Source: Escherichia coli O127:H6 str. E2348/69
Lineage (GTDB): Bacteria; Pseudomonadota; Gammaproteobacteria; Enterobacterales; Enterobacteriaceae
Length of the DNA: 64,000 bases
Assembly: GCF_000026545.1 (NCBI RefSeq)
Contig: NC_011601.1
Reading direction: 5' to 3' (one strand)
Shown: positions 31,831 to 58,656 of the stretch, piece after piece
How positions within the stretch are numbered: position 1 is the first letter of the stretch
Layout: each line of letters opens with the position of its first letter
The notes under the pieces: model-generated
Seen by the model: the letters and a program-made list of their open reading frames with translations, nothing else
Told to the model about the DNA's origin: nothing
Databases searched by the model: none
Translations under genes and position numbers: made by a program

Positions 31831-32929
31831 TCATAACCCTGCTTTCAAACTTGCTTCGATAAATTGATCCAGGCTGCCGTCCAGCACGGCCTGCGTGTTG
31901 CGGGTTTCTACCCCGGTACGCAGATCTTTAATGCGGGAGTCATCAAGGACATAAGAACGAATCTGGCTGCCCCAGCCGATGTCGGATTTGTTATCTTCCA
32001 TCGCCTGTTTCTCGGCATTTTTCTTCTGCATCTCCAGTTCATAAAGCTTCGCTTTCATCTGCTTCATGGCCTGGTCTTTGTTCTTGTGCTGGGAACGGTC
32101 GTTCTGGCACTGAGTCACGATCCCGGTCGGGATGTGAGTAATACGCACCGCAGATTCGGTACGGTTAACGTGCTGACCGCCCGCGCCGGATGCGCGATAA
32201 ACGTCGATGCGCAGATCCGCCGGATTGATTTCGATATCGATATCATCATCAACTTCCGGGTAAACAAACGCGGAGCTGAACGACGTGTGGCGACGACCGC
32301 CGGAGTCAAACGGGCTCTTACGCACCAGGCGGTGAACGCCGGTTTCTGTACGCAGCCAGCCATAAGCGTAATCGCCGGAGATTTTGATCGTCACGGATTT
32401 AATACCCGCCACTTCACCTTCCGACTCTTCGATGATTTCAGTTTTGAAACCACGCGATTCAGCCCAGCGCAGATACATACGCTCAAGCATGCTCGCCCAG
32501 TCCTGTGCTTCCGTACCGCCAGACCCCGCCTGAATATCGAGGTAGCAGTCGGCGCTGTCATATTCGCCAGAGAACATACGGCGGAACTCAAGCTGCGCCA
32601 GTTTTTCTTCCAGGGCGTCGAGTTCAGCAACGGCTTCGTTAAAGGTTTCTTCGTCGTCAGCTTCTACAGCCAGTTCCAGCAGACCAGAAACATCTTCCAG
32701 CCCCTGTTTCATTTGGTCGAGGGTGTCGACAACGGCTTCGAGGGAGGAACGCTCTTTACCCAGCGCCTGTGCACGTTCGGGTTCGTTCCAGACATCCGGC
32801 TGTTCCAGCTCGGCGTTTACTTCTTCCAGACGCTCTTTCTTGGCGTCATAGTCAAAGATACCCCCTAAGAACGTCGGAGCGTTCCGTGAGGTCCTGAATG
32901 CGATTATTTACCGGATTAATTTCAAACAT
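31831..32929 (-). CDS. prfB: peptide chain release factor 2, with programmed +1 ribosomal frameshift
   Basis: Minus strand reads ATG...CTT AGG GGG TAT CTT TGA C (classic RF2 shift site near 32852-32857); downstream frame is the 293-aa ORF with GGQ motif. Confidence 0.92.
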
Positions 32930-33019
32930 GGTCTGATTTCTTTTATTGAGCTAGTCAAAATGCGGTGATAAGAGCGGGATTGTACCCAATCCACGCTCTT
33001 TTTTATAGAGAAGATGACG

Positions 33020-34753
33020 CTAAATTGGCCAGATATTGTCGATGATAATTTGCAGGCTGCGGTTGCCGCGAAACTCGTTGATATCGAGCTTGTAAGCCAG
33101 TTGCACTTCGCGCACACCGTTATCCGGCCAGAGGGCGGTATCGACATTAAAAGCAATCCCGTCCAGCAGCGGACCGCCGCCGACCGGTTCGACCATCACC
33201 TTCAAATGACGCTCGCCCACCAGCCGCTGTTGCAACAGACGGAAATGACCGTCAAACAACGGTTCCGGGAACATTTGTCCCCACGGGCCAGCATCACGCA
33301 ACAGCTGCGCCACTTCCATGGTCATCTCTGCCGCACTTAATGGGCCGTCTGATACCACTTCCCCTTGCAATAAAGAAGGATCTAACCACTCGGTAACCAG
33401 TTCGCCAAAGCGTTGCTGAAAGAGTTCGAATTTATCCTCTTCCAGCGACAATCCTGCCGCCATCGCATGGCCGCCAAACTTGAGCATCATGCCGGGGTAA
33501 AGCGTGTCTAGCCGCTCCAGCGCATCGCGCATATGCAGCCCCTGAATGGAGCGACCGGAACCTTTCAGCGTACCGTCGCCCGCAGGCGCAAAGGCGATAA
33601 CCGGACGGTGAAAACGCTCTTTGATACGCGATGCCAGAATGCCAACAACGCCCTGATGCCATTCAGGGTGATACATTGCCAGCCCACCTGGCAGCGTGTC
33701 GCGGCTACGTTCCAGCTTCTCGCACAGAGTGAGCGCTTCAACCTGCATTCCCTGTTCGATCTCTTTACGTGTTTGGTTTAGTGCATCGAGTTCATTCGCC
33801 AGCACACGCGCTTCGCCAATGTTGTCACACAACAACAGCGCCACGCCAACGGACATATCGTCCAGTCGCCCGGCAGCATTGAGACGTGGCCCCAGCGCAA
33901 AACCTAAATCGCTGGCGGCGAGTTTTTGTGGATCGCGATTGGCCACTTCCAGCAGCGCTTTAATCCCCGGACGGCACTTTCCGGCACGGATGCGACTCAT
34001 CCCCTGCCAGGTCAGAATGCGATTATTAGCGTCCAGCGGCACGACGTCCGCCACTGTCCCCAACGCGACCAGATCCAGCAGTTCTGCCAGATTAGGAATT
34101 GCGATGCCGCGCTCATCAAACCAGCCCTGATCGCGCAAAAAGGTGCGCAGCGCCAGCATCAGATAAAACGCCACACCCACGCCTGCCAGTGATTTCGACG
34201 GGAAATTACAGTCGCGCAAGTTAGGGTTAATGATCGCTTCCGCTGCGGGTAATGTGTCGCCTGGCAAATGGTGATCGGTAACAATAACCGGAATGCCCAA
34301 CGAACGAGCGTGTTCAACCCCCGCATGGGAGGAAATACCGTTATCCACCGTGACAATTAACTGCGCGCCACGGGCATGAGCCTGATCGACTACTTCCGGG
34401 CTTAAGCCGTAACCGTCTTCGAAACGGTTTGGAACCAGGTAGTCGATATTGCTGCAACCAAGCGAGCGCATCGCCAGCACGCTTAGAGCCGTGCTGGTGG
34501 CACCGTCGGCGTCGAAATCACCGACCACAATAATCCGCGTTCCTTCGCGAAAAGCGTTGTAAAGGATCTCAACGGCCTTTTCGACGCCGCTCAGTTGCTG
34601 CCAGGGCAGCATGCCTTTAACACTGCGTTCCAGTTCCTGCGCGCTACGCACACCCCGGCTGGCATATAAACGGCGCAGCAAGGGAGGCAATTCAGCGGGC
34701 AAGTCGGCCGTTTCATCGACTTCACGGCGACGAAGTTGTATCTGTTGTTTCAC
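33020..34753 (-). CDS. recJ: single-stranded-DNA-specific exonuclease RecJ
   Basis: 577-aa ORF; DHH phosphoesterase motifs. Confidence 0.93.
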   Translation of the reverse strand: MKQQIQLRRREVDETADLPAELPPLLRRLYASRGVRSAQELERSVKGMLPWQQLSGVEKAVEILYNAFREGTRIIVVGDFDADGATSTALSVLAMRSLGCSNIDYLVPNRFEDGYGLSPEVVDQAHARGAQLIVTVDNGISSHAGVEHARSLGIPVIVTDHHLPGDTLPAAEAIINPNLRDCNFPSKSLAGVGVAFYLMLALRTFLRDQGWFDERGIAIPNLAELLDLVALGTVADVVPLDANNRILTWQGMSRIRAGKCRPGIKALLEVANRDPQKLAASDLGFALGPRLNAAGRLDDMSVGVALLLCDNIGEARVLANELDALNQTRKEIEQGMQVEALTLCEKLERSRDTLPGGLAMYHPEWHQGVVGILASRIKERFHRPVIAFAPAGDGTLKGSGRSIQGLHMRDALERLDTLYPGMMLKFGGHAMAAGLSLEEDKFELFQQRFGELVTEWLDPSLLQGEVVSDGPLSAAEMTMEVAQLLRDAGPWGQMFPEPLFDGHFRLLQQRLVGERHLKVMVEPVGGGPLLDGIAFNVDTALWPDNGVREVQLAYKLDINEFRGNRSLQIIIDNIWPI

Positions 34754-51609: not shown

Positions 51610-51793
51610 ATTTCTCTGAGATGTTCGCAAGCGGGCCAGTCCCCTGAGCCGATATTTCATACCACAAGAATGTGGCGCTCCGCGGTTGGTGAGCATGCTC
51701 GGTCCGTCCGAGAAGCCTTAAAACTGCGACGACACATTCACCTTGAACCAAGGGTTCAAGGGTTACAGCCTGCGGCGGCATCTCGGAGATTCC
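51610..51793 (+). ncRNA. ssrS: 6S RNA
   Basis: Sequence ATTTCTCTGAGATGTTCGCAAGCGGGCCAGTCCCCTGAGCCGATATTTCATACC...GGAGATTCCC matches 6S RNA; located between zapA and fau. Confidence 0.9.
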
Positions 51794-52416: not shown

Positions 52417-52469
52417 GGGCGACACACCTGCATCGCCCTGATTGACATCGTTGATTCTTTAACCTAATT

Positions 52470-52610
52470 TAGTGAGTAAGGGTAAGGGAGGATGACTCCT
52501 CCCCTGAGACTGACTGTTAATAAGCTGGGAAACTTATGAGTAACAGTACAATCAGTATGATGACAAGTCGCATCATAACCCTTCTCCTTCAAGCCCTCGC
52601 TTCGGTGAGG
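52470..52610 (+). ncRNA. sibC: SibC antitoxin sRNA, antisense to ibsC (boundaries approximate)
   Basis: Plus-strand region fully complementary to ibsC, ending in gccctcgcttcggtgagggc terminator hairpin. Confidence 0.5.
52517..52576 (-). CDS. ibsC: type I toxin IbsC (19-aa hydrophobic peptide)
   Basis: Minus strand ATGATGCGACTTGTCATCATACTGATTGTACTGTTACTCATAAGTTTCCCAGCTTATTAA = MMRLVIILIVLLLISFPAY. Confidence 0.7.
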   Translation of the reverse strand: MMRLVIILIVLLLISFPAY

Positions 52611-56747: not shown

Positions 56748-57830
56748 ATGTCTAACGTGCAGGAGTGGCAACAGCTTGCCAACAAGGAATTGAGCCGTCG
56801 GGAGAAAACTGTCGACTCGCTGGTTCAGCAAACCGCGGAAGGGATCGCCATCAAGCCGCTGTATACCGAAGCCGATCTCGATAATCTGGAGGTGACAGGT
56901 ACCCTTCCTGGTTTGCCCCCCTACGTTCGTGGCCCGCGTGCTACTATGTATACCGCCCAACCGTGGACCATCCGTCAGTATGCTGGTTTTTCCACAGCAA
57001 ATGAGTCCAACGCTTTTTATCGCCGTAACCTGGCCGCCGGGCAAAAAGGTCTTTCCGTTGCGTTTGGCCTTGCCACCCACCGTGGCTACGACTCCGATAA
57101 CCCACGCGTGGCGGGCGACGTCGGCAAAGCGGGCGTCGCTATCGACACCGTGGAAGATATGAAAGTTCTGTTCGACCAGATCCCGCTGGATAAAATGTCG
57201 GTTTCGATGACCATGAATGGCGCAGTACTACCAGTACTGGCGTTTTATATCGTCGCCGCAGAAGAGCAAGGTGTTACACCCGATAAACTGACCGGCACCA
57301 TTCAAAACGATATCCTCAAAGAGTATCTTTGCCGCAACACCTATATTTACCCGCCAAAACCGTCAATGCGTATTATCGCAGACATCATCGCCTGGTGTTC
57401 CGGCAACATGCCGCGATTTAATACCATCAGTATCAGCGGTTACCATATGGGTGAAGCGGGTGCCAACTGCGTGCAGCAGGTAGCATTTACGCTCGCCGAT
57501 GGGATTGAGTACATCAAAGCAGCAATCTCCGCCGGGCTGAAAATTGATGACTTCGCCCCTCGCCTGTCGTTTTTCTTTGGCATTGGCATGGATCTGTTTA
57601 TGAACGTCGCCATGTTGCGTGCGGCACGTTATTTATGGAGCGAAGCGGTCAGTGGATTGGGCGCACAGGATCCGTATAACAACGTTATCCGCACCACCAT
57701 TGATCATTGTGCACATCCCATGTATCGGGATTATCTGCATCGCTATCTGGAAAATGCGCCTGGCGGACATATTCACCACGATCTTCAGCAATATGCTGAA
57801 GCATCGTGGCGGTATAACGATGATTTCTGA
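56748..57830 (+). pseudogene. scpA: methylmalonyl-CoA mutase scpA (sbm) remnant: N-terminal ~325 native codons, then out-of-context tail
   Basis: Starts [21 protein letters not shown]; 360 codons versus ~714 expected; lacks conserved HCQTSGWSLT segment and B12-binding domain; 3' end overlaps convergent ygfI by ~145 bp. Confidence 0.8.
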
Positions 57831-58656
57831 TTGAATAAAGATATTCCTGCATATACATCGGCCTGTGCGGCGCATCAAAATATTTCAGCGTTGCCGGATT
57901 CACCAGTCGCCAGGCAAAATGCGGGATCACCGTCAGAAAATGTCCGCGCTCCACGGCGCTGATTTTGGCCATAAAACTGTAGGGACGATAAATAATGGTG
58001 GGATTGATCCCACAAGGTCGCATATTCGCATCAATCATTGCTTCGAAGTTGGCCCGGTTCTGAAAGCGCATTTGTAGCCAGGGTAGCTCCTGAAGCAACT
58101 CTTGCTCTTGTCGCTCTTCATAACGACGAGAAACGAGAAAGCCCAATCGCAGCGGCGGTAGTTCACTGATAGTCAGGTTTTCCAGTTCCTGAACTCGTGC
58201 AGATACATGCTGTGGGGAGATAATAAAATCTAACTGACGGTCAAAAAGATTATCGATAACGCCATTTGCGCTGAACTCAACTGGCTGGGCGGTCACGCCT
58301 TCGTACTTATCTCCGAGACTAATCAACTGATCAAAAATAATGGTCGGATAAGTATTATCTATGCCTATCACAATGTCTCGTGAACGACGTCCTGAGTTAT
58401 GGATTTCATTATCAATCGCAGAAAGTCGTTGATAAACCGGGAACAGTTTTTGATACAGTTCCTGTCCGGCTTTATTGAGGCTGATATTATTATCTTTGCG
58501 GGTAAATAGCGTATAGCCAATTTGTTCTTCCAGCGCGGCAATGCTTTTGCCAAATCGCGAAGCCGTCATATGGATTTTTTCTGCCGCCCGGGCAATATTA
58601 TTGGTTTGCGCTAATAAAATGAAATTGCGCATCTTTTTCGAAATAAAAATGTCCAT
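57685..58656 (-). CDS. ygfI: LysR-family transcriptional regulator YgfI (3' end possibly altered by adjacent deletion)
   Basis: 323-aa ORF; HTH begins near the internal Met ([25 protein letters not shown]), so true start may be 58632. Confidence 0.75.

Follow-up and report, generated by a model that had tools for sequence, protein, structure and literature searches.

The prfB gene of Escherichia coli E2348/69 carries the canonical programmed +1 frameshift cassette

The programmed frameshift in prfB, the gene for the class I release factor RF2, is a textbook case that is decades old, and it was annotated beforehand in the RefSeq record of E. coli E2348/69. That frameshifting responds to the concentration of RF2 is established for the E. 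coli gene (PMC12421855). A survey of 12,753 bacterial genomes describes the motif AGGGGG-NNN-CTTTGAC, in which AGGGGG, CTTT, and the TGA with its following C are all hyper-conserved, the CTTT is nearly universal among frameshift-containing prfB genes, and the C after the UGA acts as a weak stop context (PMC12421855). The motif, spacing, and mechanism described in that survey are the same as those of prfB in E2348/69, which matches the motif without difference and is a typical member of the group. The in-frame prfB alleles, found in motif-free lineages such as the Actinomycetota and in engineered frameshift-free versions of the gene, encode the same RF2 family. However, these alleles are without the UGA, the slippery site, and the Shine-Dalgarno-like run (PMC12421855), whereas the E2348/69 gene has all three.

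We analysed a window of 64,000 nucleotides, which is the exact reverse complement, with zero mismatches, of positions 885057..949056 of the E. coli E2348/69 chromosome, NZ_CP059840.2. Unless otherwise indicated, coordinates are those of the window. RefSeq places the prfB CDS at chromosomal positions 916128..917226 (32929..31831 of the window) as a two-piece join that encodes WP_001701073.1 and bears the note 'programmed frameshift'. An earlier reading of this DNA, made from the sequence only and referred to here as the sequence-only reading, had interpreted the site as the autoregulatory RF2 frameshift. This interpretation is supported by the elements of the cassette, the RF2 homology in two frames, and the RefSeq note. 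Indeed, prfB of E2348/69 almost certainly has the canonical autoregulatory programmed +1 ribosomal frameshift, and we found no sequence evidence against the canonical reading. The sequence elements and their spacing, the two-frame homology, the annotation, and the conservation are direct observations.

The cassette, CTTAGGGGGTATCTTTGAC, was read directly on the minus strand at 32869..32851, exactly as the sequence-only reading had spelled it. It is the single match in the window when up to two mismatches are allowed, with 0 expected based on 100 shuffles, and a shorter core, AGGGGGNNNCTTTGA, is likewise unique within the window. The interval originally proposed for the site, 32845-32865, is shifted 4-6 bases toward the 3′ end of the gene: it covers the UGA, the CUU, the UAU, and five of the six bases of AGGGGG, but stops short of the A of AGGGGG and the CTT before it.

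Translation of the minus strand from the ATG at 32929 yields 25 sense codons in frame 0 followed by a TGA as codon 26 (32854..32852), which bears out the earlier placement of the in-frame UGA. Specifically, the ATG is followed by TTT GAA ATT AAT CCG GTA AAT AAT CGC ATT CAG GAC CTC ACG GAA CGC TCC GAC as codons 2-19 and by GTT CTT AGG GGG TAT CTT TGA as codons 20-26, then by C. By direct reading, the internal Shine-Dalgarno-like AGGGGG (32861..32866, minus strand) overlaps codons 22-23 (AGG GGG) and lies 3 nt 5′ of the CUU, a position that agrees with the consensus motif (PMC12421855). The measured 3-nt spacer, UAU, is the Tyr24 codon at 32858..32860 (minus strand). This codon is in the E site of a ribosome about to shift. 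The slippery sequence CUU U (32854..32857, minus strand) consists of the Leu25 codon and the first base of the stop, and the RF2-specific UGA occupies 32852..32854 on the same strand. The C directly 3′ of the UGA (32851, minus strand) creates the weak stop context UGA-C and is also the third base of the +1-frame GAC. All elements of the canonical prfB recoding cassette were found at canonical spacing: the AGGGGG 3 nt upstream, the UAU, the CUU U, the early in-frame UGA at codon 26, and the following C. The RF2 homology runs unbroken from frame 0 into frame +1.

The first segment of the gene, comprising codons 1-25 in frame 0 (32855..32929, minus strand), aligns with residues 1-25 of RF2 in the PDB and forms the 5′ part of the RefSeq join. 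The +1 frame starts at the GAC at 32853..32851 and runs for 340 codons without interruption to a TGA at 31833..31831. This second segment (31831..32853, minus strand) provides codons 26-365 and the stop, aligns with residues 26-365 of RF2, and is the second piece of the join. Together, the 25 codons of frame 0 and the 340 codons of the +1 frame make a 365-aa protein. The alignment to RF2 that had been proposed, with frame 0 translated from 32929 to 32855 and joined to the +1 frame, thus extends over residues 1-365. The +1 translation had been suggested to start from 32851, but this start is out of frame and gives many stops; the correct position is 32853.

On this strand, the list of open reading frames contains only two entries at prfB, a 25-aa ORF at 32852..32929 and a 293-aa ORF at 31831..32712. 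The remark that only the 293-aa downstream frame appears in the ORF track holds, with the 25-aa ORF as an addition. On the 5′ side of the site, the +1 frame is open for just 18 codons, back to a TAA at 32910..32908, and no ATG, GTG, or TTG start occurs in this frame between that TAA and the ATG at 32712. The N-terminal part of RF2 must therefore come from frame 0. Frame 0 itself meets a second TGA two codons past the first (TGA CTA TGA), and readthrough is therefore unable to rescue the frame or to make RF2. A +1 and a -2 shift lead to the same frame and are indistinguishable in DNA alone; the deposited RF2 proteins (LRGYL-DYD) agree with the +1 product.

The joined 365-aa product was compared with RF2 structures from E. 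coli in the PDB. All 365 of its 365 residues aligned, for example with chain 1gqe_A (E = 8e-241), and the alignment was smooth at the 25/26 junction (...LRGYL|DYDAK...), with no gap. A single residue separates the product from 1gqe, and residue 246 is its sole difference from 1ml5_Z, the RF2 chain of K-12. The NCBIfam model TIGR00020 (prfB) matched residues 12-362 with 525.9 bits, as compared with a cut-off of 370 bits, while scores against the RF1 models were under their cut-offs. The translation contains SPF at 205-207, GGQ at 250-252, and Ala246. SPF, the stop-codon recognition tripeptide, and GGQ, the catalytic motif, define RF2 function. With a score above the family threshold and both motifs present, the product belongs to the class I release factor RF2, and the PDB, NCBIfam, and RefSeq matches of the predicted protein unambiguously identify the gene as prfB.

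Every base of the cassette (CUU AGG GGG UAU CUU UGA C) is shared with prfB of K-12, where UGA is likewise codon 26, the spacer again measures 3 nt, and a C follows the stop; the genomic context recJ-prfB-lysS is common to both strains. Over the initial 108 nt of prfB, the sole difference is synonymous: Tyr27 is encoded by TAC in K-12 and by TAT in E2348/69. The proteins differ at residue 246 (32192-32194, minus strand), which is the canonical Ala in E2348/69 and the K-12-specific Thr in K-12. Thr246 is peculiar to K-12 strains and weakens the activity of RF2 (PMC5373646). Neither the Tyr27 codon nor the difference at residue 246 affects the cassette.

The ribosomal events at the site and the autoregulation are supported by the published E. 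coli experiments summarised in PMC12421855, on which the following scheme is based. A ribosome starting at the ATG at 32929 would reach codon 25 with its P site occupied by CUU (Leu) and its A site by UGA-C. When RF2 is abundant, the UGA would be recognised and a 25-residue peptide released. When RF2 is scarce, the ribosome would pause at the UGA. The AGGGGG located 3 nt upstream of the CUU would then pair with the anti-Shine-Dalgarno tail of the 16S rRNA, destabilising the E-site tRNA, and the peptidyl-tRNA-Leu could slip forward by one base and re-pair with UUU instead of CUU. The GAC at 32853..32851 would be decoded as Asp26, and translation would continue in the +1 frame to yield the full-length 365-aa RF2. 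RF2 would thereby govern the rate of its own synthesis in a negative feedback loop.

Because the Ala246 RF2 is fully active here and most measurements of frameshifting were made with the weaker Thr246 factor of K-12, the set-point of the loop, that is, the choice between shifting and terminating at codon 26, might differ measurably from that of K-12. We consider there to be a slim chance that this is so or that the 25-aa peptide has a role of its own, and the sequence held no pointer to either an altered set-point or such a role.

We next turn to the conservation of the site. Among complete E. coli genomes, 5,425 of 5,426 contain one copy of the first 108 nt of prfB, with at least 99% identity in 5,399. 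Beyond the species, a plain-pattern scan using one genome per species found the exact 16-mer AGGGGGTATCTTTGAC in at least 120 species genomes. Among the matches listed, 115 loci lie in prfB, with the +1 frame after the motif encoding an RF2 homologue; three are cut by contig ends and have RF2-like N-termini; and two are chance matches. The confirmed RF2 proteins among the matches listed are 42-100% identical to that of E2348/69 (median 70%). The sequences flanking the 16-mer in these listed matches vary, both in the Leu codon before AGG (CTT, CTC, CTG, TTG, and others) and in the codon after GAC (TAC, TAT, TTC, and others), and the ungapped median identity of the 30-nt flanks is 53% upstream and 67% downstream. 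The record titles of the listed matches include Gamma- and Betaproteobacteria, Bacteroidota, Nitrospirae, Deltaproteobacteria, and Rickettsiales. As the loci were picked by the cassette itself, the scan describes the spread of the exact cassette and is not an unbiased estimate of conservation; the unbiased figure is that 64% of 12,753 bacterial genomes need the prfB frameshift (PMC12421855).

Two of the 5,425 complete E. coli genomes, the unrelated assemblies of O145 RM8995-C1 and the dog isolate 51008369SK1, have a deletion of one G (AGGGG, not AGGGGG). The affected loci (L002:301-407, corresponding to NZ_CP031355.1 3648759..3648865, and L126:1201-1307 in NZ_CP029973.1) are homologous to 32861-32866 of the window. 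The deletion fuses the two frames into a plain prfB CDS of 1,098 nt, encoding WP_105166511.1 with the predicted sequence ...LRGIFDYD.... In this respect, the two assemblies resemble the in-frame prfB alleles, whereas the E2348/69 window does not. Either the assemblies are wrong at this homopolymer, or autoregulation of RF2 has been lost naturally in the two strains.

A split frame can also arise from a disabling mutation or a sequencing error, in which case prfB would be a pseudogene. The output of a naive ORF caller, a 25-aa and a 293-aa ORF, fits such an origin, and homopolymer errors at the G-run of prfB seem to occur in some assemblies. However, the same two-frame layout is shared by virtually all of the 5,425 complete E. 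coli genomes and by the prfB of at least 115 other species, the break sits exactly within the canonical cassette, and RefSeq labels it as a programmed frameshift rather than as a pseudogene. Moreover, no factor other than RF2 is known to read UGA, which also weighs against a defective gene. We regard a pseudogene as very improbable, and conservation effectively refutes it.

The 293-aa ORF, which starts with an ATG in the +1 frame, could instead indicate that the locus makes two separate products with no frameshift: the 25-aa peptide and an N-terminally truncated RF2 from an internal start such as the ATG at 32712. Against this, the 25 codons of frame 0 and the 47 codons of 32853-32712 correspond to domain 1 of RF2 and align residue for residue with the full-length structures. 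Residues 1-72 are split across both frames, and the stretch of the +1 frame from the TAA at 32910..32908 to 32712 offers no ATG, GTG, or TTG at which they could start, which makes two independent products highly unlikely. The UGA could in principle be recoded in frame, by readthrough or by insertion of Trp or selenocysteine, and UGA-C is indeed a leaky stop context (PMC12421855). Nevertheless, a second TGA follows two codons on in frame 0 (TGA CTA TGA), and frame 0 past the stop is without RF2 homology, all of which lies in the +1 frame. In-frame recoding is refuted by the second stop and the absent frame-0 homology, and we assign it a practically negligible likelihood. The canonical +1 frameshift accounts for the site, and the worth of the present analysis is that of a quality check: the essential RF2 gene is intact in the window. 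The right annotation is a join of 32929..32855 and 32853..31831, neither a truncated gene nor a pseudogene.

RNA folding of 151 nt around the site revealed no structure beyond chance (z = -0.79). The absence of a hairpin or pseudoknot signal fits a mechanism that requires linear elements only. Similarly, Rfam at gathering thresholds returned no family at the frameshift site; its only matches were 6S and SIB RNAs at other positions in the window.

Upstream, the neighbours of prfB are xerD, dsbC, and recJ; on the downstream side, lysS follows after 9 nt. The lysS gene, encoding lysine--tRNA ligase, lies on the same strand at 30304..31821 (minus strand; NF009101, 1106 bits; RefSeq) and begins 9 nt past the prfB stop. 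In this region (31821-31833, minus strand), the stop of prfB is itself an RF2-specific UGA (TGA-G), and the 9-nt gap holds a GAGGA Shine-Dalgarno sequence before the ATG of lysS. Together with established knowledge, the short gap suggests that prfB and lysS may be translated from one transcript. A consensus scan of 30200..33400 found no promoter-like site 5′ of prfB, and its promoter and terminator hits were no more numerous than in shuffled sequence. These hits include a candidate terminator-like hairpin with a T-run just 3′ of lysS (30264..30285, minus strand), which is no more than a pattern match. Between recJ and prfB, a 6-bp hairpin, GGATTG/CAATCC (32977-32992), is terminator-like on the plus strand only, the number of such hits again not exceeding that in shuffled sequence.

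Several other features of the window were noted. The xdhD gene (17965-20835, plus strand), for a molybdopterin-dependent oxidoreductase subunit, has an in-frame TAG at codon 422 (19228-19230), and in RefSeq it is a pseudogene annotated 'internal stop'. The ygfK gene, for a putative selenate reductase subunit, is present as two pseudogene fragments on either side of a transposase gene of the IS4-like element ISEc13 (approximately 11846-13219). At approximately 56748-58656, a truncated srsR adjoins part of a gene of the methylmalonyl-CoA mutase family; compared with other E. coli, these remnants resemble the scar of a deletion. Finally, the Rfam matches correspond to 6S RNA (ssrS; 51610-51793, plus strand, 139.8 bits) and to a SIB antitoxin RNA (52442-52592, plus strand, 136.5 bits) that overlaps the annotated type I toxin gene ibsC.
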